Source of the DNA: Callorhinchus milii
Lineage: Eukaryota
Direction: 5' to 3'
DNA length: 64,000 bases
Assembly: GCF_018977255.1 (NCBI RefSeq)
Contig: NW_024704755.1
Span: 186,001 to 250,000, forward strand
Each line of letters begins with the position of its first letter. The stretch's first letter is position 1. Position numbers and translations under genes: made by a program. The notes beneath the pieces were generated by a model. It searched no databases, was not told the origin of the DNA, and saw only the letters and a list, made by a program, of their open reading frames with translations. Below, piece after piece: positions 11,405 through 39,529 of the stretch.

Positions 11405-12230
11405 GGACTCGGATGCAGCTGTCAGTATTAGTCCATTCATTCGGGATTTGGTCTGGAAGCAGCCATGTCAGGACATCGCAGGACCTCGCCACCACTTGCC
11501 AGGGTGTGCCTGACCCCGTGGCTGTGTGCCTGACCCCTCCCCAGCTCTGCCCTGACACCTCCTCGGCTCCCTGACACCCAGGCAGTTTAGTGATCTTTCT
11601 TTTCAATTTTTTTCTTAAACTGGAGCGCTGGCTGCATTACATATTTAACACAAACTGACTGCGGTCGATGAGTTTCAAGCCGTACAGTTGATTTGTCTAT
11701 AGTCATGACTGGACTGAACATGTGAAATCTGGCCCAAGAGAAGCAACCCTCCCTCACCCTCTCTCACATACATGGCTTTAGGAGTTCTCTCTCTCGCTCA
11801 CTCTCTCTCTGCTTGTCCAAGCGAGAAAGCCCTGCTATAAATACTGTATTACTGGAAAGCAGATGAATGTGCTGTGAAACTGCTTTTTTCCCCCCCTCAC
11901 TCCCTCCCCCCATCCCCCATTTTTGGATAAATCTCGCTTCCTCTCAAATAAATATTCATTCTATTATTTTACACTTTACCCTCTTCAGATTGTTTTAACC
12001 TCCTGATTCGCCGTCCTGTGGTTGTTTGAGATTTGGCTGAAGACTGGGAACTGTTTAACGAACAAACACAGAGATAAATATTTTTTAAAAAAAATGCAAA
12101 TTCCGGCAGCCGGTGTTTGTGGTGCAGCATTTCAGGAGCTTCACATAACAGTGAGGGCGGAGGCCGCAGAGCAGGGAAATCTTACACTGAATTGTAAAAC
12201 CAGGATTCTTGACTTTTTTTACATGATTTT

Positions 12231-12236
12231 AATAAA
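12231..12236 (+). terminator. Candidate ZC3H18 polyadenylation signal
   Basis: AATAAA about 830 bp after the stop, followed by T/GT-rich sequence; another AATAAA lies near 11947. Confidence 0.5.
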
Positions 12237-13544
12237 GGACTTATTAGTTGTCAGACTTCAGAAAGTTTTTGATTAGCTGCTTACTTGGTCTGTTTCTGCT
12301 GCACCCCAGGCACACCGATGATCTGCTTCTGTCGTGTGTTGAGGGGAAGATGCCAGGTTTCCCTGTAAAGCTGTATTTTCAGAATTCAGAGCTGTGAGTC
12401 CCAAGGGCTCTGTGAAGAGGTGTTTACCTCACTGCCAGTCTTAAGCCTGAAATCGAGGGCAGCCTTGCATAGAGTCCCACCCGAGCCCCCTGAGTGAGTG
12501 TGTCCTGCGTGTGGAAAAGGTTCCTTGAACCTCACACTGCAGAGCCGTGGTCAAAATCTCCAGCATAAGTGCCACGGTGCAAGCAGTGAAACAAATAACA
12601 AAACTTAAACTGTTCCCGAAGAGCACCGAATGTCCGAGTGATACTCGAACCTCACAAGCCGTCTTCACTGAGGAGGTCTATCAGATACCTGTACTTGTGT
12701 GTTTCTGTTGTACCAAACTTACAAACCGGGCTTTCTGTAAATCGTTAAACTGAAAATTATAAAATGGAACCAGAGCTTTTGATCTGCATTTCTTATCATT
12801 GTATTGTGACCTTCTCACTTCCTGCCACCACTGGTTTCTACCCCCATGAGCATTATTCTCCTGCACACACCACATTCGCACAGACACAACACAAAGAAAC
12901 ACACATCAAAAATGTTTGCACTGTTTGTATCTGTTGGTCTAGTAATGATTCAGGATCCGGCTCACTGCACTGTGTTCTCTTGACACCTTCTCAGCTCTCA
13001 AACTTTACACCTGTGAATGTTGTTAGTGATACTCTGAAGTTCACTAACTAATTTCCAGATCTGTAGCAAGCTGTTATTCCTGGGTTGATCTGTTGAAATG
13101 CTATTACATTCTCCCTGGACACATTTTTTTATTGAAGAAATTAAGCCATAATGTGTTGCAGATTTTACTGAGACAAGGATCCAGTGAAGACAAACTCTTT
13201 AGGCAACAATTCAAGAGACCTGGGTTAGTAGTGCTGTGCCTGGTGCACTAGCCTAATGTATTTAGCCTCCAATGAAGGTTGCAGAGCAGGTTGCCCCAGT
13301 CTGGCTGTTGTGGAAGTACTGAGGGAGCAGTTTGACTGCCTACCTCCACACACATGCCTTGTGTAGTCATGCAGTAACCCTAGGAAGAACAGCCATTGGA
13401 TTCTCTCTATCTACCACCCCCCCCGTAAACATCACTGCTGAGCAGGCTGACGTTGAGAGTCCAGCAGGTTCTCCCACCCATCGTGCTGAGCGTGAACGTG
13501 TTCCACAATCAGCCATGAACTGAATGGCTAGTTTTTATTATTTG

Positions 13545-13780
13545 GGGGATTGACTTTAGGACACCAAGAGAAACTACCTCTTTTTCAGGTTATGCCACAG
13601 GATCTTTAATGTTCACCTGAACAGGCAGGTGGGTCTGATTTAACTTCTCATTGGAAGAACAGCAACTCTATGTGGTTCTCCCCCTGGAATGCAAGCATAG
13701 ACTGTGAGCTCAAACTCTGTTGTGGGGCTTGAACCCACAACCTTCTGACTCGGAGGTGAGAGTACAAGCGACTGAGCCAG
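13545..13780 (-). mobile_element. Old SacSINE1-like SINE, 5' part
   Basis: Reverse strand reads TGGCTCAGTCGCTTGTACTCTCACCTCCGAGTCAGAAGGTTGTGGGTTCAAGCCCCAC (tRNA head) then GTGAACATTAAAGATCCTGTGGCA. Confidence 0.65.
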
Positions 13781-14789
13781 GCTGACACTGATAGTTCTCC
13801 ACCCACTCCTTTTACACTTATGATTTAAAATGCAATTGGAAGTAAATAGCAAGCAGTCCTGTTGCTATTAATAGATTATACAGAGAAGTACAACCCCCGT
13901 GATGGTCAGGATATCAAACATTCTAATAAAGAGTTTGTCTAGCTGAGCAGTTTACTGAGTGACATTGATTACTGAGAAATAACATTCAATCAGGAACTGA
14001 CGTACCATGGGTTCAGCAAAGGCAGACTACAATAATGTGCGTCAAAACAACTTGCTAATATTATCTCAGTCTCAAAAGCAAATAATTATTCTATATATAA
14101 ATAGATGCTGGAATCTTATTATTGGTGGCAATAAATGCAAGAGTTAAGGAACCCTTAGTGACGTGCTAGTTTGCGGTCTGGTTCAGTGTGAGTGTACACT
14201 GCCCCCCCCCAACCAATTGACTTCTAAGTCAGTGAAGAGAAATGATGGGCCTCAACTCAGGAGGTTCTTGTCCAGGGTCAGTGCAGTGGGGTGTTGGGTT
14301 AAATACAACCCAAGTACTGTCCCTCCCACTCACAGGGCAGCCCCAGGAAGGCCTAACCCGACCAGCAGAACCACATCTAACCCTTTGTTTATGACATGAA
14401 AATAGTGCCATTATGTGGTTTGGATGTTGAGGGATATTGTGGCGCTCTTTCTACCTAAAGGTTCTAGGATTCCTGGCCCAAGTGCAACACTTCTGGGGAA
14501 ATTCTTTCTGGTGTTTGGGGACTGGGGGGATATGAAACAGGCCAGTATGTGGGATTGGATGATGTTTTAGGATGTCGCGGAGCCAGGTATGACTTTCAAA
14601 TCTAGTTAATAATAATCCTAACAGTTGATACAGTGACTTTCAAGTCAGCAAAGTTATTCCAATACTTGCTGTGTTTTTTCTTGAGGAAAGTGCTCCTCTT
14701 CCCCTCCCCAAATCCACACTGAATGATTAGATTTCAAGCTGCTGCTGGTCTGAGAGCAATCTCTGGTACAGGTGCTGTTGTTTCCTTCA

Positions 14790-15799
14790 GCCTGTTGCTC
14801 TGTGTGATGTTTATCTACATGCTCCCTCTTGGGGATGTCATCTGCAGACATGGGGTACATTTCCACATGTACGCAGACGACACCCAACTCTATTTTTCCA
14901 CCTCTCTTTGCAAATCCCGGTCCCCTGATGTTCTGTCAGCCTGCCTTTCAGACCTCAGGGGCAAGATGAGCGCAAATTTCTTTCAACTGAACGTCGACAA
15001 GACAGAAGCCACACTCTTTGGCTCTCGTCAATGTCTCAAATCCCATGGCTCTCACCTCCTCCACCTACCCGACTTCCCCCTAAAACTCTCCGAACCCGTA
15101 CGCAACCTTGGCGTTAGGTTGGACCCCCATTTGTCCTTCCTCCCCCACATCCGGTCCCTCACCAGCACCGCTTTCTTCCACCTCCGACACATCGCCCGTC
15201 TCCGCAAATACATCTCTCCGAAAGCCGCTGAAACTCTAGTCCATGCCTTTGTCATCTCTCAGCTGGACTACTCTAACACCGGCCTCCCCACCACTACCGT
15301 CCATAAAATCCAAATCATCCAAAACTCTGCCACCCGCACCAAACTACGTTCCCTGATTACCCCAGTCCTTGCCAGACTGCACTGGCTGTCTGTCCCAGAG
15401 AGGATCGATTTCAAGATCCTCACCACTTGTATTCAAATCTCTCCACTCCTTTGCACCCCCCGACCTCTCTGACTTCTCTCCTCAAAACAGTACCCGTTGC
15501 CTTCGATCCTCCGGGTCTGGCCTCCTCCTCATCCCCCGAGTCCTCCGCTCCACCCTTGGCGGCCGTGCCTTCAGCCACTATGCCCCAAGGCTCTGGAATT
15601 CCCTTCCTCACTCCCTTTGTCTCGCCCCCTCTCTTCCTACTTTCAGGTCCCTTCTGAAGACCTTTCTTTTCGACTGCGCCTTTGGTCACCTTCCTCCCCC
15701 TCCCGCTGGCTCGGCCCCGGGATTCATTACTGTGAAGCACTCTGAGACGCCATCCGGCATGGAGGGCGCTATAAAAATCCAAGTTGTTGTTGTTGTTAT
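14790..15799 (+). mobile_element. L2 LINE, reverse transcriptase and C-terminal part, frameshifted
   Basis: ORF 14723-15472 contains FHMYADDTQLY, NFFQLNVDKTE, VRNLGVRLD and LVHAFVISQLDYSN; (GTT)n tail. Confidence 0.92.
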
Positions 15800-15806
15800 C
15801 ACTATT

Positions 15807-17100
15807 CAACAACAACAACAACAAGATTCCATTTATAGAGCGCCTTTCACATCGGGAGGACGTCCCAAGGCGCTGGACAGTTGGGTCAGGACCCGAGCAG
15901 GGGGGAAATGGTCAGGGTGAGGGGAGGGAAGGGAGGGAGCGAGGAGGGGTAGAGAGTTGAGAGGGGAGCTGAAGTCATGGTCAAAGAGAAAGGTCTTGAG
16001 ACCGGCCTTGAAGGAGGAAAGGGAGGAAGCGGCGAAGGCACTGGCGGATGGAGTTCCAGAGCCTAGGGGTTGAGAGGCTGAAGGCCCGGCCACCGATGGT
16101 AGGGCGGTTGGGGTGGGGCATGTGGGACAGACCGGAGCCAGAGGAACGGAGGGTACGGGCGGGTAGGTAAGGGGATAGCAGGTCAGAGAGATAGGAGGGA
16201 GCAAGGCCATGAATGGCCCTGCAGGCGAGGATGAGGATCTTGAATTCGATCCTCTGGGGCATGGGGAGCGAGGGTGAGGGCGAGGGTGGGAGTGATGTGG
16301 TCGCGAAGTCTGGTGCGGGACAGTACACGAGCTGCAGAGTTCTGAATGACCTGCAGCTTGTGCAGGGAGGACCGGGAAGGCCGGTGAGGAGCGAGTTCCC
16401 ATAGTCCAACCTTGTGGAGTCCTGTAGCTCAGTGGTTAGAGCATTCGCTTTGCAAGCGAGAGACCTGAGTTGAATTCCAGGCAGAGGGCGAAACCTTGGG
16501 CAAGTTTCCTTACTCCACACAGAGCCTAATAATAATCCCTCCAAAACCAAAAACAATAATAAAAATATTGGTCATTTTCAATCTATGACTGTTTGTGGGA
16601 CATTGCCGTGTGCAATTGGCTGCCGCGTTCACCCACAAATATACAGTCAATTCACTTTACAGTGTGTTCTGTGAAGTGCTTTGGGACATCCTCCCGACGT
16701 GAAAAGCGCTATATCAAATGCAAGGATTATTATTCTTATTGAGGTGATAAAGCGTGGACCAGAGCTTCAGCATCGTGAGGTAGTGCCGTAGTCTGGCGAT
16801 ATTTTGGAAGTGATAGAAGGCGTTGGCAGTTGTGGCGCGGATATGAGGAAGAAAGGACCCCGAGGTTCCTGATGGCTTTGAGAGGTGGAGAGTGCAGCCT
16901 TGGATGCTGATGCTGTCAGCGCCTGAGGTGCGGAGCCGCTGACGTGAGCCAATCAGGAGGGCCTCAGTTTTACGCACGTTGAGCTGAAGAAACTTGTCTC
17001 TCGTCCTAGACTCGATGTCAGACAGGCAGCTGTCAGGACATCGGGGGTAGAGGAGGAAAGGTAGAGTTGGGTGTCATCCACATACATGTGGAAGTTAACC
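15807..17100 (-). mobile_element. L2 LINE 3' part, tail-to-tail with the previous copy, interrupted by a SINE
   Basis: Minus frames FHMYVDDTQLY, RLDYGNSLLTGLP, RIEFKILILA, IGGRAFSLSTPRLWNS; (AAC)n tail at 15807-15823. Confidence 0.9.
16416..16740 (+). mobile_element. Full-length DeuSINE nested in L2
   Basis: Same SINE consensus; L2 coding sequence continues on both sides. Confidence 0.92.
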
Positions 17101-18669
17101 CAGAGCCTAGACAGTGGGGAGATTCCCACCTGCCTACAGCAACATATCATAAGGAGGGAGGGGCTGGAATGCTGCCAACACAACTGTGTCTGAAACGGAA
17201 GTGATTACATTGCAATAATCTGTCACCACACACATTTCAAAAGGGAACTGCACAGTAACTTCACCCACCATAGGCCAAGGTTTGGGTTTTTCATAGTTTT
17301 CAAAGAACAGTCCACACATTTGTGCCAAACCATCTCAGAAGTCTACACAAGGCTGGACAGGTGGAGGTTGGAGCTGACCAAATCCAAACAGAAATTAGAT
17401 TATTGATGCCTTACCTGATCAAGATAAACAAGCTCACCTGTCCACCTGTTCAGGCTCTAAGAGCCAAATTGCCCCATCTTCACACATTCAAATACCTCCA
17501 TGGACTTGCCTAATCTCTGTGACCTCCTTCAGACACACTTATCCATCCATTCCCTTCGCTCAGAAAATACTGGCTCAAAGCCCTGCCCTATCCACCCACT
17601 ATTGGCAGGCTGGCTTTGAGCTATTATGTCCCAGCTCACTTGAACTCCATCCTGGAGTCCCTCCAACTCCCTCCCTCCTCGTTCAAAGCATTTCTCATAG
17701 CTCTTTAACCACACTTTCAATCAGTGAAAAGTGCTATACAAATGTAATATTGTATTGTATCTTTCCCCAACCCCCTCAGTTCCCACCCCCAGTTCCAATG
17801 TCCATCCAGCATTGTCAAAAACTTTGAGACGTCCTCCAGACGTGAAAGATGGAAATAGATGTATTATTGAAGCAGACTATTGGCTCCATTTTTAAATACC
17901 ACCTAAGATATTCACAATTATTCAATAATAATAAATACTTGCATTTGATATAGTACCATTCATGTTGGGAGGATGCCTCAAACCACTTCGTGGGATTTAC
18001 CGTAAAGTGCAGTGACTGTGTATTTTGTAGGTGAACATGATACATAGTTTACAAACATCAACTTCCCACAAATGATCATGACTTTAATGACTACTTTATT
18101 TGGGGATTGTTGGACAGGACATCGGGAGAGAGACAAATAATAATAATAATGATCCTTGCATTTATATAGCGCTTAGAAACTCCCTTCTCATTTTGAATAG
18201 TGTCATGCGATCCTTAATGCTCATTTTAACAGACACCACATTGGAGTCTGAGGCAGGAGAAAGAACCTACTGAGCGAGGGAAGAAGGCACCGAGGAGAAA
18301 CTGATGAACTGTGATGTCACTTAGCTTCTTACTAAATTTATCGAAACTAATGAACAGATTAGGAAACAGTAATAATATTGCTATATTGAGCAAAGGTGTC
18401 GACGAACAACCTGTCTCATCACAGCTTAGAAATGATTGAAATGCATTTCCTCAAAGGAAATAACTCTTCCAACTGCGGATTTCTTGGCAGTTAACAGGGA
18501 CTGCGCAGTGCTGCCCTCTTGTGGCCACAGGGCGCTGCTGGTCTTTACTATTTCAAAGCAACTGCTGCTGCTGTCCATGGTTCCAGATGGCATCATGAAG
18601 TTGATTCATTCTCTGCTTTTATTCCATCAGTAACCCCATGCAAGTCAGTGCAGCAAGCTGTGGAGACCC

Positions 18670-18707
<38 letters not shown>

Positions 18708-19002
18708 GACGTTTGATATAGCACCTTTGTCATAAAGAGGACGTCTCAAAGCGGTTCACAGGATTTTCTGTTAAGTGTAGTGCTTGTATTAGAAATAGAG
18801 TAATGCTCCCTCTGCACTGTGTCATTCAATAAAAAACCCTGAGAGTAGGTTACAGCCTGGGTCTGGTCGAGGGGCTGCAGTACATAGAAAACAAATACTG
18901 GAAGCCAGAAATCAATTAATCCTGGGTTTGCAATACAATCTACACTTCCACAGAACCTTTCACATAAGGAGGACATTCCAAAGCACATGACAATTCTGGA
19001 GT

Positions 19003-19329
19003 GGAGTCCTGTGGCTCAGTGGTTAGAGCACTCACTTTGCAAGCGAGAGGACCTGAGTTCAATTCCAGGCAGAGGGCGAAACCTTGGGCATGTTTCCTTA
19101 CTCCACACAGAGCCTAATAATAATCCCTCCAAAAAAACCAAAAACAATAATAAAATTGGTCATTTTCAATCTACGATTGTTTGTGGGACATTGCTGTGCG
19201 CAATTGGCTGCCGTGTTTGCCCACAAATATACAGTCAGTTCACTTTACAGTGTATTCTGTGAAGCGCTTTGGGACGTCCTCCCGACGTGAAAAGTGCTAT
19301 ATCAAATGCAAGGATTATTATTATTATTA
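19003..19329 (+). mobile_element. Full-length DeuSINE
   Basis: Same SINE consensus. Confidence 0.92.
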
Positions 19330-19527
19330 ATTCTGGCTGGGGACTGGAGCTACGGGTTGAGTATGAGGAGAAATTGGAATTTATACACAATCCTGATAAG
19401 ACGGGTTGGGATGAGGCCAGTGTTGACAGGAGGGTTACAGGCTGAGACAGTAACAATGGGGGGAGGGATACAAGCTGAGAGTAACAACAGGGGGAGCACA
19501 GACTCGGCTGAGAATTAACTATTCACA

Positions 19528-20119
19528 ATCTGCAGTAAAAGCGGGGTCTCCTTGGGGCTGAACTGGCTCCAAGCTGACAAGCTTGGCAATAGAATGTGAG
19601 AATCGAGCCAGCCCTCTGTGCTGGTTTCTAGTCCAGTTCCTGAGCCAGATGGGTCCACATTATTCTAGGGCATTGCTGATGACAGCACAGCCCAGCCTGG
19701 CTGATCAGCAGAACTTGGAAGGTCAGACCAGTCACTGGGAGCAGGGAATCATCCCACTCAGCTCCTGTTAACCCTGCATGCCAAAGCCCTAATGGTACTA
19801 GCTGGACGAGCAGTGGGAAAGCTTGCCAGACAGCAATATCAATGGCAAGCTATACAGTTTTAGTTGGTTAGACTCCAGCAGGTTCCCCAACGTACAATCT
19901 GGGCTATCCCCAAGCTTTGGCTTTTGCCAACATGAGTCTATTACTTTCCAGTTTATGTAAGCAGGATGTTTCCCTCCAGGGAGTGAGTGTGCATTTTATT
20001 CCAACAATCTATCTCTGGGATTTCCAGGTGTAGGTGGGATGCATGGAAATCTCAGCTCGGTTTGGAAACTCTTAAACACAGTGATGGGTGTCAGACACAC
20101 TGGTGGGCAAAACAAAAAC
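19528..20119 (+). repeat. Unclassified interspersed repeat (other copies at about 43690-43846 plus 44660-44760, 48510-48750, and 57500-57900 on the minus strand)
   Basis: Shared blocks such as CAGTCACTGGG.CAGGGAATC.TCCCACTCAGCTCCTGTTAACCCT and GGAAAGCTTGCCAGA..ATGGCAAGC recur at these positions. Confidence 0.75.
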
Positions 20120-20429
20120 CTGGAAAAATCCAAATCTTAAGTGAATATTTACTTTTGATTGAACACATCCTGGGGATTAATAAGTGTCAGATTTATTTGT
20201 TTGAAATAAATATTTTCCTGTAATTAGCTGCTGCAGTGCTGTTGCTGTATGCAATATCCTCTGGTCCGGGTGTCAACACACACAGGTCAGAGTGGGAGGG
20301 GCTGCCCTCTGCCTCCTTCTCAGGTATCAGGATCATTGACAACACGGAAATGGACAGGATTTTTCCCCATTGGGGTTTCCAGTGGGAAAAGACATGCATA
20401 AAAGTGCGGCTGAGCCCAGCAGACAGACA
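20120..20429 (+). promoter_or_regulatory. IL17C proximal promoter with kB-like sites and a TATA-like box (left arm of an inverted repeat)
   Basis: GGATTTTTCCCC at 20357-20368, TGGGGTTTCC at 20371-20380, CATAAAA at 20397-20403, about 85 bp before the ATG. Confidence 0.75.
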
Positions 20430-20485
20430 CTCACCCGTCATCACAGGGAGAGCGAGCAGCCAAAGGCAATAAGCTGTCACTGGCA

Positions 20486-21534
20486 ATGAAATCCCTGGGG
20501 CTGAAGGTAGGAATGAAACCCAAAGAACAACAGCGGCTCAAAGGCTAAACTTCAGAGAACTTTTAAACCAACAACAGCTTTGTATCCAGTCCGGCGGCTC
20601 TGTCTCTCAGCTTCTGATGTGTGTCTCTGTGTCTCTCCCACCAGCTCCTGTTCCTGACCCTCGCCCTGGCGGCGGCGATGTGTGCCGGGAGGAGGGAGAA
20701 GCGGGTCAGAGAGGATCGGTGCTGGGGCCCCGGGCAGCCGACGGAGAGAGCGCTGCGGCTGTCGGGCCGGACCGGCGCTTGGGTCCGTTTCCCTTCGGTT
20801 TACTTGGTGGAGAAGTTGGAAACTCGCGGCGGCCACAGGCGCCACCACTCAGCCCAGGACTGCCCCAAACTACTGCAACCGGGCAGCTCGGACCCCAGTC
20901 ACCGCTCCATCTCTCCCTGGACATACAGGTAGGTGTCCAACAGCACAGACTGGGGTCAGGGACTCGCTCACAGCACAGCCCGAGAGGCCATACATTGGGC
21001 TCGGGGTCGGGGTGACATCCAGCGCTAATCCTTCACATAAAACCGAGCCTTCCTGGTGGGAAGCCGCTCCCGGGCGCTTCACGGCTTTAACTGTAAACTT
21101 CAGTGACTGGGTTTGTCGATCAGTGAGTGCGCGTCACTGTCCCACATACAGACATTGAGACACAGATACACACAGTGTAGAGCCCAACTCCTGCCCAGAA
21201 GTCACTGGTGGGTGTCAGAGCTCCGTCACTGCCGAGTGCTGCGGGACGTGTTGTTGACTTGTGCGGCTGTGATTGTAGGATTGACTACGACGAGAACAGA
21301 TTCCCGGAGAAGTTGGCGTTTGCCGAATGTCTGTGTAAAGGCTGCATCAACACCGCGTCGGGACTCGAGGAGCATCACCTGAACTCGGTGCTTCTGGAGC
21401 AAACCATGATGGTCCTGCGGCGCCGGCCTTGCCCCCACGACCCCCACCTGTACAGCTTTCAGATGCATTACATCCGAGTGCCGGTGGGCTGTACCTGTGT
21501 ACTGCCTCGCAAGCACACACTTCCCTCGGCGTGA
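20486..21534 (+). CDS. IL17C: Interleukin-17C
   Basis: Exons 20486-20506 (MKSLGLK), 20645-20928 (signal peptide LLFLTLALAAAMCA to RSISPWTYR) and 21279-21534 (IDYDENRFPEKLAFAECLCKGC..LNSV..VLRR..VPVGCTCV). IL-17 cystine-knot motifs; adjacency to ZC3H18 as in human supports the C subtype. Confidence 0.93.
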
Positions 21535-21614
21535 ATTCACACTCATCGGGTCTGGTTCTTATCAAACATGTCGGGATTTTATGAAAGAGTCCAACCGGGC
21601 GGCACCTGACTCAG

Positions 21615-21962
21615 GTGTGTGTGTGACTGTGGGTGTGTGTGAGAGAGAATATGTGTGAGATTGTGTAACTGTGTGTATGACTGTGTGTGACTGTGTGTGG
21701 GTGTGACTGTGTGTGTGTGAGACAGAGAGAATATGTGTGAGATTGTGTAACTGTGTGTGTGAGACTGTGGGTGTGTGTGGGTGGGTGTGACTGTGTGTGT
21801 GTGAGACTGTGGGTGAGACTGTGTGTGGGTGTGACTGTGTGTGTGTGAGACTGTGGGTGACTGTGTGTGTGAGACTGTGGGTGAGACTGTGTGTGGGTGT
21901 GACTGTGTGTGTGTGAGACTGTGGGTGACTGTGTGTGTGTGTGGGTGTGTGTGTGTGTGACT
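21615..21962. repeat. (GTGACT(GT)n) TG-rich minisatellite in the IL17C 3'UTR
   Basis: Directly visible. Confidence 0.9.
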
Positions 21963-22058
21963 GGGTGTTTGACTTGCCGGAACCTGCACATCGCTGGCGT
22001 CTCCCTGATCCCCTGAATTAATAGGTGTGAAACCTATTGAAGCAGCTTATAGCAGTTG

Positions 22059-22118
22059 ATTTACTTTATTTATAAAGTTTATTTATAAATCAGCTATTTA
22101 TTTATTTATGTATTTATT
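22059..22118 (+). promoter_or_regulatory. AU-rich element cluster in the IL17C 3'UTR
   Basis: Overlapping ATTTA pentamers (TATTTATTTATTTAT), typical of cytokine mRNAs. Confidence 0.8.
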
Positions 22119-22461
22119 GTTGTGTTTGTGGGAAGGGGGAGACCCGGGCTGTGTGTAGACACCGTTTCTCTGGGACCTGAAGCTTTGGCTGTCTGCCTGG
22201 ACTCTCAATGTGTTGAATACATGTGTATTTGATATTGTATGTCATTGTGTGACTAGTGATCTGCTTAATTTTTAAAAGTTATTTATTACAAACTGTGCCA
22301 TTTTCTGTCTGAGCACCTCGTGTTTCGGAAGGGAACATAATTGTATTTATGGACTGTAACTTTATTCCGTATTAAATTAGGATAACGCCTGTTATCGTCT
22401 TCATGTAATGAGTCTATGACTTGGTGATTGTCGACATGACGTTTTGTTAAAATCCATTAAA

Positions 22462-22467
22462 AATAAA
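22462..22467 (+). terminator. IL17C polyadenylation signal
   Basis: AATAAA preceded by ATTAAA and followed by a GT-rich downstream element. Confidence 0.75.
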
Positions 22468-22632
22468 GATATTGTATCTGGAGCAGTTTGTGGTGTGAAC
22501 TTTATGATGTGGTGTGAGCCTGTGATTGCTCACAAAATACTCTACACTACACTTTACGAAGCACTTTGAGACGTCTCGAAGATGTGATGAAGCACTATAT
22601 CAAATTCAAGGATTATTATTATCCTGTCCTGA

Positions 22633-22943
22633 TGTCTGTCTGCTAGACTCAGCCGCACTTTTATGCATGTCTTTTCCCACTGGAAACCCCAATGGGGAAA
22701 AATCCTGTCCATTTCCGTGTTGTCAATGATCCTGATACCTGAGAAGGAGGCAGAGGGCAGCCCCTCCCACTCTGACCTGTGTGTGTTGACACCCGGACCA
22801 GAGGATATTACATACAGCAACAGCACTGCAGCAGCTAATTACAGGGAAATATTTTATTTGAAGCAAATAAATCTGACACTTATTAATCCCCAGGATGTGT
22901 TCAACCAAAAGTAAATATTCACTTAAGATTTTGATGTTTCCAG
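22633..22943 (-). repeat. Inverted duplicate of the IL17C promoter (right arm)
   Basis: Reverse complement of 20120-20429 with about 10 differences by manual alignment. Confidence 0.95.
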
Positions 22944-22964
22944 TGTGTGAATAGTTAATTCTGT

Positions 22965-23095
22965 GCTGTTACTCTCTCAGCCTGTACCCCTCGCCCCATT
23001 GTTACTCTCTCAGCCTGTACCCCTCGCCCCATTGTTACTCTCTCAGCCTGTACCCCTCGCCCCATTGTTACTCTCTCAGCCTGTACCCCTCTCTC
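22965..23095. repeat. 33-bp tandem repeat (CTCTCAGCCTGTACCCCTCGCCCCATTGTTACT), about 4 copies
   Basis: Directly visible; a degenerate reverse-complement homologue lies at about 19435-19495. Confidence 0.9.
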
Positions 23096-24394
23096 CATTG
23101 AGACTGACTGACCTGGTCCCAACCTGTTTTACTCTCTCCTACAACCATCCCCTGAACCCAGTCTGGTCAGGTTCATGTCCTAGAGACACAGGTTTGGGAG
23201 TGGGTGCCCGGGTGGGAGTCAGATTTCTCCATCCTCTTTCTCCCCTGTTCCCCTCCCTCACTGGCTTCTGTGGCCTGGGTATTGGTGATTCCATGTGTTG
23301 GGTCCAGGCTCCACATTATACACTGCTCTCCCAGGCCACAGGGGACAATGTGGCTTTCAATCTAAACACATATGCTGGGAGGCTGGTGTTGGGGAGGGAT
23401 GTGATAACTATTTTTTTTTATCGAATTTACAACCTTCATTAGCCAACAAGATGTACATCTCTGGGAAATGGTCCTTCATCATGTGTGAAACCCCAGTGAA
23501 ACAAATAGGTACAGTCCCCACTTCTCCTGACCTCCCCCATCTCCCCGTTTATTCTGCCCCAGAATTCCCCCAGATGCTCTGCTCCTAGCCAGTGTGAGGA
23601 CCACATGTCTCAGGCCAGGGATTAGGATACACAGAGCAACTTTGTTCTCATCCTGATCATTCCTCTCAGGGAGTTCCCAAAGGAAGGATTGGGAGCCAAG
23701 GGTTGGGATTTTCCCACTGGCTGTCATATTTGTTTCCCAACAGCTACAGGGAAGGATGAAGAGGCCAGGACACTGACCTCATCTAAAAAATGGCTTGATG
23801 CTGAGTTGGGCAGAATGTAGAGGAAATATACTGGGAAAATTAGATCAAAGAGGCTGAAAGGCCTTCTTCAAATTAACCTCTTTTGTGAAGAATATTTCTG
23901 GTTGAGTCTCTGTGTTTATATCTGTGTTTGTGTCTGAATATCTGTGTGTGTGTGTGTGTGTATATCTGTGTGTGGCTGTATCTGTGTGTGTGTTTATATA
24001 TGTATGCAAGTTTGTGTGTATCTGTATATGTGTGTACTTGTATCTGTGTGTGGTCTGTTTGTGTGGAGCGGTTGGGGGCAGGAATCTGCTGTTAAGTGAG
24101 GCCATGGGTTGGTGATGCTGTGTGCTGAGCCTGTTCACTCTGGCTGAGGAGAGGCACTGACTGGGCTCATCATTGGTCTAAGTGACAGGAGGGGCAGGAG
24201 GGGAGTGTCATGGGAATTCTCAAACCTGAGCCACTATAACTTTCCACAGATGCATGGAATGAGTCAGAGCTGAAGGAATGTGTGAGACCATGACTGGGAT
24301 TGGCTGCAGGATGAGCTAACACTGTAGTTAAATTCCACTTGTAGCAAAATCACAACTTCAGGCTGTGTGAGCTGCTCCAGGAAGTGGGCTCTCA

Positions 24395-25502: not shown

Positions 25503-26559
25503 GTTGGGTATCATATGTTCTCACATCCTCATGGGGATCAGGCTTTGCTGCTAAAACATTGCAGTACAATTACTCCCTAAATCACTGACTGCTGACAACT
25601 AAACACACAATAATGAGAACAGAATTAACGTCACTTTAATTCGTTGTTTCTCATCAGTAGCTTTTCTGAAACCAAAAAACGATTCCTGCACTGACAGTAG
25701 GTGGCATTGTTTATTTGCATGTCAGTATATGTTTTTATATGTGCGTGTGCATGTGTCTGTATGCTTATATATGTGCGTGTGTGTGCACAATGGGGGGAGA
25801 GAGACCTGTGGGTCAGTCTATGAGACATGGCGGTACAGTATATGTATAGATGCTGCCCCACATGCGGGGTGTGATATATATGCACTTTGTTATTGCAGTG
25901 TCCTGCTTCATATGTTAATGTGAAAGGTGATCAGTTCCAGGTGGATGTAAACGTTGTCTCAAGCAGTAGCGCTGTGTGTGTGGAACTCAGCCAAAGTGTC
26001 CAAAGGTGGATGAGTCAGTTGCTCTCAGAGAGACAGCCACAGACGCTGTAAACGTGGGCCCAGGGAAGAAATTAAACATCTTTTTTTTGATCAGCCGAGT
26101 TTTCGCATGTGTCAGACTCCTGGCTGACCCCCCAAAACTAAACATTTAATGGCAGAGACTGCTCTTTATGTGAAGCCCTGAGAGCAGAGCACAGGCAGCG
26201 GTCAGCGTCAGGGTCAGAGGGCAAAGTGACCCGCATATGGAAGTAGCATCTCAGGTAACAAGTGAATCGCTTTGAGGCGTCTGTGGACAACGTGATAAGG
26301 CGCCGTATCAAATGCAAGGATTATTATTATATCAAAGGGAAAGGATTATTATTGTTATTTCACACGGAGCAGAAAAACCTGAGGCTGTGTGTGTCTCAGA
26401 TTGTTTAAATCCCACAGAAATGTGGCAAATTCACTCCTGAGGCGATCATTCATTTTCTAATTATTATTCCTTATTATTTTAATTATTATAACTATAATCC
26501 CTTCCCTAATTATTATTGTTGTTGTTGTTATTCCCGGTCCTGTGGCTCAGCGCCAGAGA

Positions 26560-26702
26560 CACACCTCAGGCTCTGAGGTCGCTGTTTCCGGCCGCGGCCG
26601 CGAGGTGGCGGCACTGAGCCGGGCGGAGAGTCACGTGGTAGCAGCGGCTTCAGGTGACACTGCGCATGCGTCGCATTGTTGCTGGTCGGCGGTTGGAATG
26701 AG
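26560..26702 (+). promoter_or_regulatory. CpG-rich promoter and probable non-coding first exon of KIAA0513
   Basis: CpG dense; CTCF-like CCGCGAGGTGGCGG at 26598-26611, E-box GTCACGTG near 26629, NRF1-like TGCGCATGCG at 26661-26670, splice donor AG|GTGAGT at 26702/26703. Assignment to KIAA0513 is an inference from it being the next + strand gene. Confidence 0.65.
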
Positions 26703-26709
26703 GTGAGTA

Positions 26710-26890
26710 GTAACTGTCCCCCCCCCCGCGGGTTACCCTGGTAACTGTCCCCCCCCCGCGGGTTACCCTGGTAACTGCCCCCCCCCCCGCGGGTTACCCT
26801 GGTAACTGTCCCCCCCCGCGGGTTACCCTGGTAACTCCCCCCCCCCGCGGGTTACCCTGGTAACTGCCCCCCCCCCCCCCCCCCCCCCGC
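26710..26890. repeat. ~30-bp tandem repeat, 5 units, each with the palindromic X-box GTTACCCTGGTAAC
   Basis: X-boxes at 26732, 26762, 26793, 26822 and 26851, separated by C-runs plus GCGG. Confidence 0.92.
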
Positions 26891-28262
26891 GTGTGTGTGT
26901 GGGAGTCAGTGTGTGTGTGGGGGTCAGTGTGTAGGGGGGTCAGTGTGAGTGGGGGCAGTGTGTGTGTGGGGGTCAGTGTGCGTGGGGGGGCAGTGTGTGT
27001 GGGGGGCAGTGCGTGGGGGGCAGTGTGTGTGGGGGTCAGTGTGTGTGTGGGGGTCAGTGTGTGTGTGGGGGTCAGTGTGTGTGGGGGGGTCAGTGCGTGT
27101 GGGGGGGCAGTGTGTGTGGGGGGCAGTGTGTGTGGGGGGCAGTGTGTGTGGGGGGGCAGTGTGTGTGGGGGTCAGTGTGTGTGTGGGGGTCAGTGTGGTG
27201 GGGGGTGGGGGGCAGTGTGGTGGGGGGCAGTGTGTTGGGGGGCAGTGTGTGTGGGGGGGGCAGTGTGTGTGGGGGGCAGTGTGTGTGGGGGGCAGGCAAT
27301 GTGTGTGGGGGGGCAGTGTGGTGGGGGCAGTGTGTGTGGGGGTCAGTGTGTGTGTGGGGGCAGTGTGTGTGGGGGGCAGTGTGTGGGGGGCAGTGTGTGT
27401 GGGGGGGCAGTGTGCGTGGGGGGCAGTGTGTGTGTGGGGTCAGTGTGTGGGGGGCAGTGCGTGGGGGGCAGTGTGCGTGGGGGGCAGTGTGTGTGGGGGG
27501 GTCAGTGTGTGTGTGGGGGGCAGTGTGTGTGGGGGGCAGTGTGTGTGGGGGGCAGTGTTGTGGGAGTCAGTGTGTGTGGGGGGCAGTGCGTGGGGGGCAG
27601 TGTGTGTGGGGGCAGTGTGTGTGTGGGGGGCAGTGTGTGTGGGGGGCAGTGTGTGTGGGGGGCAGTGTGTGTGGGAGTGGGGGGGCAGTGTGCGTGTGGG
27701 AGTCAGTGTGTGTGTGGGGGTCAGTGTGTGGGGGGGTCAGTGTGTGTGGGGGTCAGTGTGTGTGGGGGCAGTGTGTGTGGGGGGGGCAGTGTGTGGGGGG
27801 GGCAGTGTGTGTGGGGGCAGTGTGTGTGGGGGGGCAGTGTGTGTGGGGGGCAGTGTGTGTGGGGGCAGTGTGTGGGGGGCAGTGTGTGTGGGGGGGCAGT
27901 GTGTGGGGGGCAGTGTGTGTGGGGGGCAGTGTGTGTGTGGGGGTACAGTGTGTGGGGGGTACAGTGTGTGTGGGGGTCAGTGTGTGTGGGGGCAGTGTGT
28001 GCGGTGGTGGGGGCAGTGTGTGCGGTGGTGGGGGCAGTGTGTGTGTGGGGGCAGTGTGTGTGGGGGGCAGTGTGTGTGGGGGTCAGTGTGTGTGGGGGGG
28101 CAGTGTGTGTGGGGGGCAGTGTGTGGGGGGGCAGTGTGTGTGGGGGTCAGTGTGTGTGTGGGGGCAGTGTGTGTGGGGGTCAGTGTGTGTGGGGGTCAGT
28201 GTGTGTGGGGGGGCAGTGCGTGGGCGGCAGTGCGTGGGGGGCAGTGTGTGTGTCGGGGCAGC
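26891..28262. repeat. G-rich minisatellite (G4-7 CAGT (GT)n), about 1.4 kb
   Basis: Directly visible; source of the long spurious ORFs in the track. Confidence 0.95.
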
Positions 28263-33807: not shown

Positions 33808-36800
33808 ATGGGCACCCCGGCAGCCTCCAGCCCTGCACATCAACGCCTCCACCTGCTCGGCAGTGACTCCGCCTGTGTGGCCCCAAACACCAGAGCAATG
33901 CCAGAGAGGCTGGAGCCGGATCGGAGCAGTGATAGCACAGGCAGTGAGAGCGAGAGTGAGCTAGGTGACTACCCCACTCTCCCGAGCCAGGATAACGGCA
34001 CCTCCTCAGATGAATCCTTCTCTTCCCACCAGAGCAGTGAGTTGCTGGAGACGGCCGAGCGCAGGGAGTTCATGCGTAAATATGTGGAGAAGATCTTCAG
34101 TGGAGGGTAAGAGGTGGGAGGGAGGGGCCTGGGGTGTGTAGCCTTTGTCGGGCAATGGTTTCTTGCTGAATGTCTCAGCCAGTAATGCTGCTTCCTCCAT
34201 CCTGATATTCAGGGAAGCAATAAACCAGGAGGAGAAGGCTCGGTTTGGGGTGCTGTGCTCCGAGCACAGTCCTGAAGGCAGAGAGTGGTTTGCGAAACAT
34301 GTCAGTGCGCAGGTGAGTAGGTATGAGTAGCACAGGTGAGCGTTTGCGAAGTGGGGAGGGGGCAGTGGGCACAGTGAGCTCCGCCCTGTGCAGGGGGAGC
34401 TGTGAACCACACCAAGTTCCTGCCACTGGGGGATGATGTGTTGGCAGTGCTGTCCCCTAGTGGCCAATCCTGATACTGCAGCACCAGGCTGCTCCATCCA
34501 AAATCAAATTGCACCCACAAACCGCTCCCGCTTGTGTACATGTGATTGTGTGAGGTGAGGCTTACACAACACGCGAGATGGTTGGGTGCTGCCGTGTGTT
34601 TAGAATTTAGCAACAATTTGACTTGAAGTTGGTAACATTAGGAGGTGTGTGCGTGCGTGTGCGTGTGTGTGCGTGTGTGTGAAGCTGCTGGGTTGTGACG
34701 ACATATCTCTAGCGCTGTGCATGCCATGCAGTAACACAATCTGATCTCTCTGCAGCGGTGTAATTCTAAATGTGTGTCTGAGCACACCTTCTACAGGCTT
34801 GTCCAGTCCTTTGCTGTAGTCCTGTTTGAGTGAGTATTGGTTTTGCTTTCTGAGTTAATTTGGGCTCTTGACTTTTATGGGTGGAGCCGAGGGGATGGAG
34901 CGAGGGGAGGAGCGAAGGGGGAAGTGGAGTGAGGAGGGGGGAGCTAGGGAGGAGCAGGGTGGAGTGAGGTGGGGAAGTGGAGTGAGGAGAGGGTGTGGAT
35001 AGGGGCGGGAGCGAGGGAAGGGGCAGGAGCGAGGGAGGTGGGGGAAAGGGGGTGAGTGCAAGGGAGGGGAGGGGGAGCAGGAAAAACGATCCTCAATCAG
35101 GAGAGGGGAGAGAGAGAGACGATGATGTGTGTGTGATCACCTCTTGTTCCAGGTGTTTCCAGATGGATGATTACAGCCCGGCCAAGAACCTGATGACCAT
35201 GTGTTTCACTTTCTATCACGTGGGTAAGTGCCACTTCACAATTAGTCAACATCACTTCAGTCTATCTCATCTCATCCCTCCAGAATAGAGGGGAGCAGAG
35301 AGGAGGAGTAGCGAACGAGCAGCTCCAGGGACAAATTCCAGCTTCATTACAGCAAATCCTGTTCATTGCCCTGAAGCCAGAGACTCCACTCCGTTCTCTG
35401 TGTGGAAGCTCCTTGTGACAATACCGTCCTCCGGTGGCATATAAAAGTACTGCAGTGTTCATCCCTCCAGTTGTATTCAGTATCTCCGCAGGATTCCCTA
35501 CTTGCTGGGTCGCCCTCTGCTTGCACCACAAATCCCTCTTTATTTTCCTGCCGTTGCAGCCAAGCCTTGTGTGAGCGTCACTGACTTGAGAGAGAAACCC
35601 GCTGCACCCATCGACTCCTACCTGAGAACCGCCAACAGCTGGCTGGCAGGCAAGCGAGACCTCGCGGACAAGCTGCTGAGGAACAAGGAAAACGTCAAGG
35701 CCATCTTCGGGGGGCGGGAGACCAGGCTGAAGCAACCACAAGCCAATAGCGGGTGGGTATTGGCTGGCCTCATCCGGACCCCGAGGGTAATCGGGGCTGG
35801 TTGGTGGAACCCAGGAGAGAGTAGCAGAATGGGGGAAAAGTGGACATTTTGTGGACCAACCACTACCTTGTGTTACTCTGTGTTTCAGGAGCGCTGAGCC
35901 CCAAGCCCGGAAACGATCACGGAAAACAGGTACGTGATTCCTGACTGACCATCTGCCTCCTGGTCAGTATTAGTCACTCAGTGCCGCTGTGTCAGACCAG
36001 CGCTATTCACCTGACACCAAGGTGAGCTGTCTGACTTGTATTTTGCTGATGGAACATGTTTCTGATTGTCCTCAGTGAAACTGGGCTGTGGAGAGGAGCA
36101 GAAAGGAGAGAAAGTCTACTTGTACACACATCTGAAAACACAGCCTATCTGGTAGGCCTTCACATTGTGACATTCACTCATTGTCACGTAGAAGCAGCCG
36201 GAAGCTGCTGGATGAATGTGCAGTGTGTGTGGCCTGAACCCGCTTCCTCCCCCCTGCCTCCCCCCGGGAGCTCCCCCACGCTGTGATCAATGACATGGTG
36301 GTTGGCTGGAGAGGGGGGAAACAACACTTACTGTGTTTATAGGTGGGGGTGGTTTCGAGGCACGGTGCAACTCACAGTGACTGACTGTTATCTCTCTGCT
36401 CTTGCTGGCAGGCATACGCTCCGTTTCTGGAATGCTGCCTTCTTTGATGCTGTCCATTGTGAACGGAGGAAGCGATCGCCCACCACAAGGTACAGATTGG
36501 GGGGAGGGGGTTGTGAGGGAGGGACTATGGGAGGGAAACTCTGCAGCAGCCCGTGTACTCTTGCGCACCGGGCTCCGCGACTCCCACCCTCGCCCGACTC
36601 CACTGGCTCCCAATCCCCCAGAGGATCAAGTTCTAGATCCTTGTCCTCACTTTCAAGTCCATCCATGGCCTTGCCCACTCCGACTTCTAAGACCTGCTGA
36701 CTCCCTACCAACCTACCCGCTCCCTCCGTTCAGCGGGCTCCGGCCTGCTCCATGTCTCCTGCCCGACCCACCCTACCATCGGTGACCGGGCTTTCAGCCT

Positions 36801-38743
36801 CTCTGCCCCCACACTCTGGAACTCCATCCCACGGTCCCTTTGCCTCACTTCCTCCCTCGCCTCATTCAAGGCCGGTCTCAAGATCCTTCTCTTCGATCAT
36901 GCCTTTGGTCTCCCTCCCACCTCTCTGCCTTCCCTCATCCCAGGGAAGGACTGGGGGAGGGGGTTTGAGGGCGAGAGGGGGCAGAAGTCCGCAGGTGCAG
37001 GTTGACATGAGGATACCCAGTGACATTGACGGGTGTTTCAGATTACAATCAGTCACTGTGAGGCTGCCACTATCAGCAACTCCATCCTTTGTGTGAGATG
37101 TTAAACTGAGCTCCTGTTTGTGCAGGCGGACATTAAAGATTCACAGTGCTGTTGGAAAAGACTTACTCTCTCTTGCTGTCCCCAAATCGTATCCCAAGTA
37201 CAACTGGTCATTTACTTTGTGGCTGTGTGTGGGACATTGCTGTGTGTAAAATAGCTGCTGTGTTAGACTACAAAACACACAGTCACTATATCCTGTGCTG
37301 GCCCCTCCCCACCCTGTGCTGGCCCATCCCTTGGCACCATGTGCTGACTCTTCCTCCTGGCACCCCGTGTTGGCTAACACATTACACTTGTATTGACAGG
37401 GAGCGATGGAGCCACATGACGGCTGAGGAACGAGACGACAGCCTCCGGTTCAACGAGAATATTGCGTTTGGGCAACTTGGGTAAGAGCAGGCGGGGGCAG
37501 GGGGAGCAGACGGGGGCAGGGGGAGCAGGCGGGGACATGAAGGGGGAGCAGGCGGGGGCAGGAAGGGGGAGCAGGCGGGAGCAGGCGGGGGCAGGAAGGG
37601 GGAGCAGGCGGGGCAGGAAGGGGGAGCAGGCGGGGACAGGGAGGGGATCAGGCGGGGGAAGGAAGGGGGAGCAGGCGGGGGAATGAAAGGAGCAGGCGGG
37701 GGAAGGAAGGAGGAGCAGGCGGGGGAAGGAAGGGGAGCAGGCGGGGGAAGGAAGGAGAAGCAGGCGGGGGAAGGAAGGAGAAGCAGGCGGGGGAAGGAAG
37801 GGGGAGCAGGCGGGGGAAGGAAGGGGGAGCAGGCAGGGGCAGGGGGAGCAGGCGGTGGGAGGGGACACCTTCCACATAACATCTCAAAGTTACGGGGAGG
37901 GAGTGTGGTCATAGGCTCAGGCCAAGTGCCAGGTTTTAAGGTGGGATTTAAAGCCTGATCGGGGGTGATCCCGAGTTAGCTGAGGAGCCGGGTAGGAGAG
38001 CAGAGAGATGGGGAGGTGTTCGGATCTAGATATCGATTGGGTGGAGCCTACTGAGCACTGGAGTTGGTGTGGAGTCAATGTGGAGTGGAGGCGAGGGAGG
38101 AAAAATGGTGCCAAGGTCATGTGTACGACATGATTCCCTCCATGTCCGGCAGCACCTTCACACACAACATGTTGGCCTTTGGACTGAGCCAGAAGCTGTG
38201 CAATGACTTCCTGAAGAAACAAGCAGTGATCGGCAACCTGAACGAAGGTCAGACTGGTGCTGCAGGGGAGTGGGTACTGTTTAACCCGCGCTGCCACTGA
38301 GCTGGGAGTGTGGTTGTACAGTGTAGAAGGAGCTTTACTGTGTCTCTAACCCTGACCTGGGAGTGTGGACGGACGCACAGTGTAGAGGGAGCTTTACTGT
38401 GTCTCTAGCCCAGACCTGGGAGTGTGGACTCACAATGTAGAGGGAGCTTCACTGTGTCTGTAACCCTGACCTGGGAGTGTGGACGCACAGTGTAGAGGGA
38501 GCTTTACTGTGTCTCTAACCTTGACCTGGGAGTGTGGACGCACAGTGTAGAGGGAGCTTTACTGTGTCTCTAACCCTGACCTGGGAGTATGGATACACAG
38601 TGTACAGGGAGCTTTACTACGTCTCTAACTTGGGAGGAGGGATTGGCCTGTTGTTTGTGTTCTCTATTCACCTCCTTACTGACTTCCCAACAGAACAATA
38701 CCAGCTTCTGTGCAACAACATCCAACAAATGGCCGTGGAATAA
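33808..38743 (+). CDS. KIAA0513: KIAA0513 protein (SBF2-like C-terminal domain)
   Basis: Exons 33808-34106, 34213-34312, 34756-34829, 35153-35223, 35560-35752, 35889-35929, 36076-36151, 36412-36489, 37400-37480, 38153-38247, 38694-38743. Peptides [80 protein letters not shown] and [11 protein letters not shown] match recalled human KIAA0513. Confidence 0.96.
36535..36925 (+). mobile_element. L2 3' fragment
   Basis: [19 protein letters not shown]-type motifs across frameshifts. Confidence 0.75.
37487..37858. repeat. Purine-rich minisatellite (GAGCAGGCGGGGGAAGGAAGGG)n
   Basis: Directly visible, starting just after a splice donor. Confidence 0.9.
38300..38635 (+). repeat. 55-bp minisatellite, about 6 copies (ACAGTGTAGAGGGAGCTTTACTGTGTCTCTAACCCTGACCTGGGAGTGTGGACGC)
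   Basis: Directly visible, in the last intron of KIAA0513. Confidence 0.92.
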
Positions 38744-39529
38744 ATGCCAGCCAAAGCTGAGAGCTACTGTGAGGAGCTGCAGTGCCCACAGCCTCTGGAC
38801 AGTGTGCCAACAATCCAGCCCAGACCCCACAGGCTAAGTGCTGTGGTCTTGCTGTGCCTCCAAGTGATGTGCTGGCAGGCATGTGCCAGGACTCCCTCCG
38901 CTAACTACATTCACTCCCGTCACTAATGTCTTAATCTGATGCTGCTCTGGTGTTAATGGTCATTGTTTCAAACACCAGCAAGAACATGAACCAGCAGAGA
39001 CCCATCACTGCGGCTTTGCCATAACCAGACAGCGGTGTGAGTGAGAGTTACTGTATGTTCGTGTGTGATTGTGAGATACTGTGTGTTTGTGTGTTTTCAA
39101 TGCTGTCCTGCTATCCCGCGTGAAGAGCACTGTTTAAATGCGAGTATGTTCATCCCTCATCACTTCATTTTGTCTACCAACACACTACATTTTACAGTAA
39201 ATCCTGTGAAGCGCTTTGAGATGTCCTCCCAACGTGAAAGACGCTGTATCAAATGCAAGGATTGTTATTACTTCCTGGTTTTACAGCTAATCCGGCCATT
39301 GTTTCTGTGACCGGCTCATTTTAGTGAATACAGTCGAGGTCTGCGTTTCTGTGCGAGTGTGTGAGTCTGTGTGTTTGTGAGTCCGTGTGTGAGTGTGAGT
39401 CCATGTGTGTGTGCGAGTTTGTGTGTGCAAGTGTGTGTGAGAGTCCATGTGTGTGTGAGTCCATGTGTGAGTGTGTGTGTGCCTGACTGAGACCCTGCAG
39501 GTGTTTTGATATGTTACAGAAACAGTTTT

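Follow-up and report, generated by a model that had tools for sequence, protein, structure and literature searches.

How would a cytokine gene behave if a copy of its own upstream region stood, inverted, just beyond its 3′ end? The 64,000-nucleotide stretch of Callorhinchus milii DNA analyzed here (the window) raises this question at IL17C, whose proximal upstream region recurs in inverted orientation past the 3′ untranslated region (3′UTR). An earlier interpretation, made from the letters of the DNA (the sequence-only reading), had proposed that the copy is an antisense promoter fired by the same stimulus as the gene. In the literature searched, we found no paper that describes this duplication or an antisense promoter of IL17C, and no description of how this epithelial cytokine is regulated in cartilaginous fish.

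An inverted copy of the IL17C upstream region

The gene is IL17C, as had been supposed. Its three coding exons, all on the plus strand—exon 1 (20486..20506, encoding MKSLGLK and ending at a GT donor), exon 2 (20645..20928), and the coding part of exon 3 (21279..21534)—join into an open frame of 186 aa with 0 internal stops. Exon 3 carries the IL-17 domain (PF06083, E = 9e-26), and its top match in the protein search was C. milii IL17C at 100% identity; among the 120 matches listed, the named ones are IL17C save one that is called "uncharacterized." Of five IL-17 matches across the genome, one is a close IL17C match. The C. milii IL17C protein in the database (168 aa) begins within exon 2 and has no signal-peptide-like start; the model presented here has 186 aa. 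The presence of IL-17C in this species is also noted by a review (PMC6795676).

Two arms enclose this gene. Arm 1 (20120..20429, plus strand) is the native proximal upstream region, with a kB-like site at 20372-20381 and a TATA-like CATAAAA at 20397-20403, and its position suggests that it serves as the promoter. Arm 2 (22633..22943, minus strand) is the inverted copy of this region, faces the 3′UTR, and has the corresponding kB-like site at 22681-22690 and CATAAAA at 22659-22665. The two align in inverted orientation (20120-20429 against 22943-22633) at 96.8% identity over 311 columns (BLAST), with 10 differences, nine substitutions and one indel, so that the coordinates and the approximate count (about 10 in 310 bp) of the sequence-only reading were right. 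An unbroken stretch of 162 bp (20253-20414), the longest without a difference, bears out an identical core of about 160 bp containing CATAAAA; of the two kB-like sites that were also placed in it, only one comes within one mismatch of the consensus. Homology ends 26 bp after CATAAAA, again as described. Farther inward, the similarity between the flanks of the arms was equalled in 48 of 200 shuffles and in 250 of 1,000, no exon relic was found past arm 2, and the view that the promoter region was duplicated without the gene body therefore holds. The idea that arm 2 is followed by another IL17C gene or an exon remnant was rejected on the same shuffle-level homology and on the single close IL17C match genome-wide.

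Arm 2 begins about 165 bp beyond an AATAAA that starts at 22462, within an ATTAAA/AATAAA motif (22456..22467, plus strand) that is likely the IL17C poly(A) signal. The 3′UTR that it faces is indeed rich in AU-rich elements (AREs), with nine ATTTA motifs in 21990-22490; they span 22059..22349 on the plus strand, and seven of them are crowded into 22059-22116. An old SINE-tail fragment (22539..22622, plus strand), whose nearest copy of at least 70 nt in a 1.144-Mb sample is 85.7% identical, abuts the inner end of arm 2. No Rfam family was matched in 22000-24000, and ARAGORN returned 0 matches in 18900-19500.

How unusual is such a pair? A search of the whole genome (991 Mb) with the arm gave two matches, both at the IL17C locus. 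Among inverted pairs of unique sequence in the 1.144-Mb sample, which includes the 64-kb window, the arm pair is the sole one that passes a filter of at least 100 bp, at least 85% identity, and a spacer of 0.2-20 kb; four direct pairs pass the same filter. A transposon or Pack-type element with terminal inverted repeats was rejected, given that the arms exist in two copies only and that no target-site duplication of at least 4 nt was found at the arm ends, a single 4-mer at the outer ends being a chance match.

We also asked whether the repeat might have been created by assembly. Over the interval in which run contigs were compared (22130-23300), both arm 2 junctions are bridged in both of the DNA runs examined (X1 and X4, from different samples and two of the four that best cover the locus): the inner one by 82-nt contigs spanning 22596-22677 with 0 differences in either run, and the outer one by contigs of 122 nt (22875-22996) and 349 nt (22648-22996). 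Because both junctions are bridged and read depth over the arms is about twice that of the flanks in X1 and X4, mis-assembly is an unlikely source of the repeat, and the structure is real in other samples. The DNA runs that best cover the locus could include the sample from which the assembly was made, which is the one point in favor of an artefact; the X1 and X4 contigs differ from the window sequence at flanking sites. The arms themselves differ at 10 positions, a further point against an artefact, which we regard as very improbable and largely refuted. X1 and X4 both have G at 22810, a variant that cannot be assigned to either arm, as the contigs collapse the two.

The gene order around IL17C is partly that of human. 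Exons of ZC3H18 lie upstream on the plus strand, the same strand as IL17C, and end near 11400, which matches the human arrangement of the two genes. This co-directionality, shared with human, does not support a staggered-break inversion of IL17C. On the 3′ side, CYBA and MVD, neighbors of IL17C in human, lie 5.3 Mb from it on the same contig (C14:5498937-5513547), beside a cadherin gene; this side thus departs from the human order, and no breakpoint can be placed. Sulfatase- and Sedlin-domain genes, likely GALNS and TRAPPC2L, are found upstream of ZC3H18. Downstream of IL17C there is a spliced gene at 34010-38770 (plus strand), for which a CpG-richer stretch near 26000-27000 may be the promoter; its peptides resemble KIAA0513, a candidate name that searches did not confirm. 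Pfam scans, covering 448 of 605 frames of the window together with 75 of 272 and 75 of 263 frames of neighboring stretches, placed TINF2_N at 41305-43582 (minus), a FANCM pseudonuclease/HhH domain at 49119-50566 (plus), BRO1 at 53324-55251 (minus), and DUF1604/G-patch at 60600-62607 (plus), which by their domains and gene order are likely TINF2, FAAP24, RHPN2, and GPATCH1, in that order. A minisatellite of about 55 bp forms inverted arrays at 38297-38629 and 40787-41208, separated by about 2.2 kb and located in the introns of two genes that converge. Human IL17C is on the plus strand (PMC11141873).

Extent, age, and identity of the two copies

Does the duplication stop at the arms? The arms are as the sequence-only reading gave them, but the duplication is larger: 19430..19527 (plus strand; two 33-bp units and a unique 17-mer) also matches 22946-23091 in inverted orientation, and nothing else in the genome, with six substitutions in 83 aligned columns, plus gaps. 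On the far side, the second copy (22944..23100, minus strand) consists of a site without a retroposon followed by four 33-bp units. Homology still farther outward is not significant, its score being reached by 7 of 200 and 2 of 200 shuffles in one comparison and by 5 of 40 and 9 of 40 in another.

The sense copy alone is interrupted, between its outer segment and arm 1, by an old, A-tailed, 5′-variable interspersed element of about 580 bp (19539..20119, plus strand). It has 12,030 candidate copies in the genome, the best other copy reaching 84% among 40 scored, and comparison of copy ends showed that the 3′ end is rich in A and that the 5′ ends vary, which suggests the 3′ end of a non-LTR retroposon. 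The element diverges by 10.6% from the column majority and, among 18 copies, by 14.6% from its nearest relative; of 19 loci compared, one was a near-duplicate and was dropped. It carries a kB-like site at 20017-20026, GGGATTTCC, which is present in 10 of the 18 other copies. The family thus spreads kB-like sites, of which the sense promoter alone receives one.

The stretch that the second copy lacks has nearly the same limits as the retroposon, with an offset of at most about 12 bp at one end and 1 bp at the other. This slightly favors reading the second copy as an empty site, with a duplication older than the retroposon. Under that reading the two copies would be too alike for their age: in the absence of conversion, more than the 13 differences found in 215 outer columns would be expected (P = 0.003 to 8e-6). 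If the retroposon was skipped, there is no such excess likeness. The less favored reading is that a younger copying event may have skipped the retroposon by microhomology. A 9-mer at the second-copy junction also occurs in the retroposon 3′ end, the junction can be read as the product of microhomology-guided deletions, and the divergence of the outer flank, about 7%, fits a younger, element-skipping duplication for which long-term conversion would not be needed.

Identity between the copies changes from the outside inward. The outer flank has six differences in 83 columns, 20120-20252 has seven substitutions and one indel, the next 162 bp have none, and the last 15 bp have two. An identical run of 162 bp has P = 0.006 under uniform placement of the differences. 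The outer columns (13/215) exceed the inner ones (2/177) by Fisher's test at P = 0.015 with a boundary picked after seeing the data, and halves fixed a priori give 7/155 vs. 2/155 (P = 0.17). Under a model in which the native copy is frozen and the second is neutral, two or fewer differences in 177 have P about 0.10. In mammals, conversion tracts of a few hundred base pairs are usual (PMC3961182). The excess identity of the core fits gene conversion and is proof neither of function nor of selection on arm 2; selection is not needed to account for it, since conversion fits and so does a model in which only the native copy is constrained.

NF-kB motifs and the predicted antisense transcript

Is there anything in the surrounding DNA that could drive arm 2? 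The NF-kB consensus is GGGRNWYYCC. The site at 20372-20381, with its counterpart at 22681-22690, is within one mismatch of this consensus, and the second site, at 20357-20368, is not. Because there are 1,455 matches at no more than one mismatch in the 1.144-Mb sample, the lone kB-like site of the arm carries little weight. A different picture is presented by 23485..23715, a single-copy cluster of four consensus sites, with one-mismatch sites at 23485 and 23561 and perfect ones at 23669 and 23705, 36 bp apart. It has no second copy in the genome and no homology to 11500-19430. Among the 1,455 site-anchored windows of 250 nt, it is the sole non-repeat one with at least two perfect and at least four total sites, a threshold set post hoc; two perfect sites within 250 nt occur in three other places outside a tandem array. 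Measured from the inner ends of the arms, the cluster lies 852-1,082 bp from arm 2 and 3,056-3,286 bp from arm 1. It is probably a 3′ enhancer of IL17C, judged by its motifs, although it could serve the next gene instead, and its proximity makes stimulus-linked firing of arm 2 more plausible. Other perfect matches in unique DNA are found at 17117-17127, 3.3 kb upstream of IL17C, and at 51717 and 51946, a pair that falls within 240 bp (51717-51955).

The sequence-only reading took it as established that mammalian IL17C is NF-kB inducible. In human, NF-kB sites are reported upstream of the gene, although silencing of NFKB1 left IL17C mRNA unchanged in one study (PMC11141873). NF-kB control of shark IL17C would be an extrapolation from human.

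What kind of RNA would arm 2 produce? Followed leftward from 22635 over 646 nt, the antisense path has seven poly(A) hexamers but lacks any U1-like site; on the sense path the counts are 0 and 2, respectively. At least seven hexamers were found in 0.14% of 5,000 random windows, a rarity to be read with the fact that the hexamers are the AREs themselves read on the minus strand. The first two lie at +270 and +349, and seven of the nine ATTTA motifs lie beyond both. In mammals, a path rich in hexamers and poor in U1 sites marks short, unstable transcripts (PMC4618350). The sequence-only reading had suggested that an antisense RNA might stabilize the mRNA by masking its AREs. Masking of AREs has a precedent in the iNOS antisense RNA, which stabilizes an inducible mRNA (PMC3976307), but it is disfavored here because the transcript would meet the hexamers at +270 and +349 ahead of the main ARE block, with nothing U1-like to protect it.

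X5 and X7, two of the four presumed RNA runs, are represented by unstranded contigs; neither gave a contig over the inner junction of arm 2 or over 22330-22529, a result that is uninformative either way. One low-depth contig of X5 matches the arm with two other letters and exits at the end of the homology. It appears to represent the sense copy, in which case it would reach 111 nt upstream of CATAAAA, and it may mean that IL17C starts farther upstream than assumed or that the run contains DNA; we treat it as a weak hint only.

Competing explanations and known counterparts

We propose, and give about an even chance, that the inverted arms are kept alike by conversion and that arm 2 is promoter-competent and would likely fire weakly, yielding a short, unstable RNA, any effect of which would be exerted in cis. 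The inverted doubling of the IL17C upstream region around the gene most likely goes back to a single copying error long ago. Arm-to-arm gene conversion has since likely held the promoter-proximal core identical, which would make a promoter-competent arm 2 a by-product. Placed between the 3′ end of IL17C and the probable 3′ enhancer at the kB cluster, arm 2 would likely fire weakly toward the 3′UTR upon stimulation. We predict that cleavage of its antisense RNA at the poly(A) hexamers, 270-350 nt from the start, would be followed by degradation, as with promoter-upstream transcripts. If IL17C is affected at all, this would come from sharing of, or competition for, the enhancer or from collision near the poly(A) site, and a role through a stable, ARE-masking RNA is not expected.

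Three other explanations deserve weighing. Arm 2 may be silent, the decaying scar of a more recent templated inverted duplication in which the retroposon was left out, with the identity of its core due to constraint on the native copy plus chance. We consider this rather unlikely: the neutral model (P about 0.10) and the a priori halves (P = 0.17) leave room for it, as do the equal divergence of outer flank (6/83) and outer arm (7/132) and the microhomology reading of the junction, while the lack of any difference in 162 bp (P = 0.007 at 3%, boundary post hoc) and the close fit of the missing stretch to the retroposon ends argue against it. In addition, a core promoter identical to that of arm 1 seems unlikely to be wholly silent when a strong kB cluster lies 0.85-1.1 kb away. 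The antisense model of the sequence-only reading, considered here with selection on arm 2 and with the iNOS antisense transcript as the parallel, is unlikely in our view; in it, a promoter induced together with the gene makes an RNA that limits or stabilizes IL17C mRNA. The model would account for a copy that stops at the expected start site with CATAAAA and the kB-like site unchanged and a strong kB cluster behind it, and antisense RNAs that stabilize inducible mRNAs are known (iNOS; PMC3976307). Under this model, however, the transcript would start with an old SINE tail and meet hexamers before seven of the nine AREs with no U1-like site on the way; moreover, the identity of every non-motif base in the core is an outcome of conversion and goes beyond what selection on motifs would need.

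The remaining explanation, which we hold to be quite unlikely, is that the gene is invertible: crossing-over between the arms would flip the 2.2-kb gene body, so that on some chromosomes IL17C would stand under arm 2 with the kB cluster about 1 kb upstream of its start, rather than 3 kb downstream of it, and the same exchanges would homogenize the core. Known inversion-mediating inverted repeats are of kilobase length, and these arms are short (311 bp, of which 162 are identical in one run). The assembled orientation is also that of the human ZC3H18-IL17C pair, and the contigs, none of which phases an arm from end to end, give no positive sign of a flip. What speaks for inversion is that identity peaks in the middle of the homology, that the cluster lies at such different distances from the two arms (852-1,082 vs. 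3,056-3,286 bp), and that gene-flanking inverted repeats drive recurrent inversions in humans (PMC3961182).

Our preferred explanation, conversion with weak firing of arm 2, has a bolder extension that we think improbable: two conversion-synchronized promoters would be fired together, arm 2 would act as a decoy or brake beside the enhancer, and the gene may flip between an enhancer-near and an enhancer-far state. If arm 2 is active, the locus would show on a small natural scale how a gene can gain an antisense or decoy promoter by having its own promoter copied beside an enhancer, with conversion keeping the two promoters in step. If arm 2 is silent, it is another inverted duplication scar. 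A further outcome of the analysis is a candidate NF-kB enhancer on the 3′ side of IL17C in this cartilaginous fish.

How does this locus compare with known systems? It resembles local inverted duplications of unique DNA, reportedly described by Ranz et al. in 2007 as scars of template switching or staggered breaks, in having two inverted, nontransposon copies a few kilobases apart with no target-site duplication. It differs in that what was copied is a core promoter region and in that IL17C is co-directional with ZC3H18, as in human, and so is not a simple gene-inversion scar. Genes that undergo conversion and recurrent inversion through flanking inverted repeats (FLNA-EMD, HsInv0389; PMC3961182) likewise have near-identical inverted arms around them, with identity likely maintained by exchange between the arms, whereas the IL17C arms are 0.3 kb long and hold the gene's own promoter region, and an inversion allele is hypothetical here. 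With the rat iNOS antisense RNA (PMC3976307), IL17C shares a candidate convergent promoter past the ARE-rich 3′UTR of an inducible immune gene; in contrast to iNOS, the candidate is a copy of the sense promoter, and its transcript is hypothetical and, given the early poly(A) hexamers, predicted to be short and unstable. The likeness to promoter-upstream and enhancer-type unstable RNAs, ended by the U1/poly(A)-signal axis (PMC4618350), lies in the hexamer-rich, U1-poor path that follows the start, although the IL17C antisense RNA would start 3′ of the gene, at a duplicated promoter, rather than at the back of the gene's own promoter.
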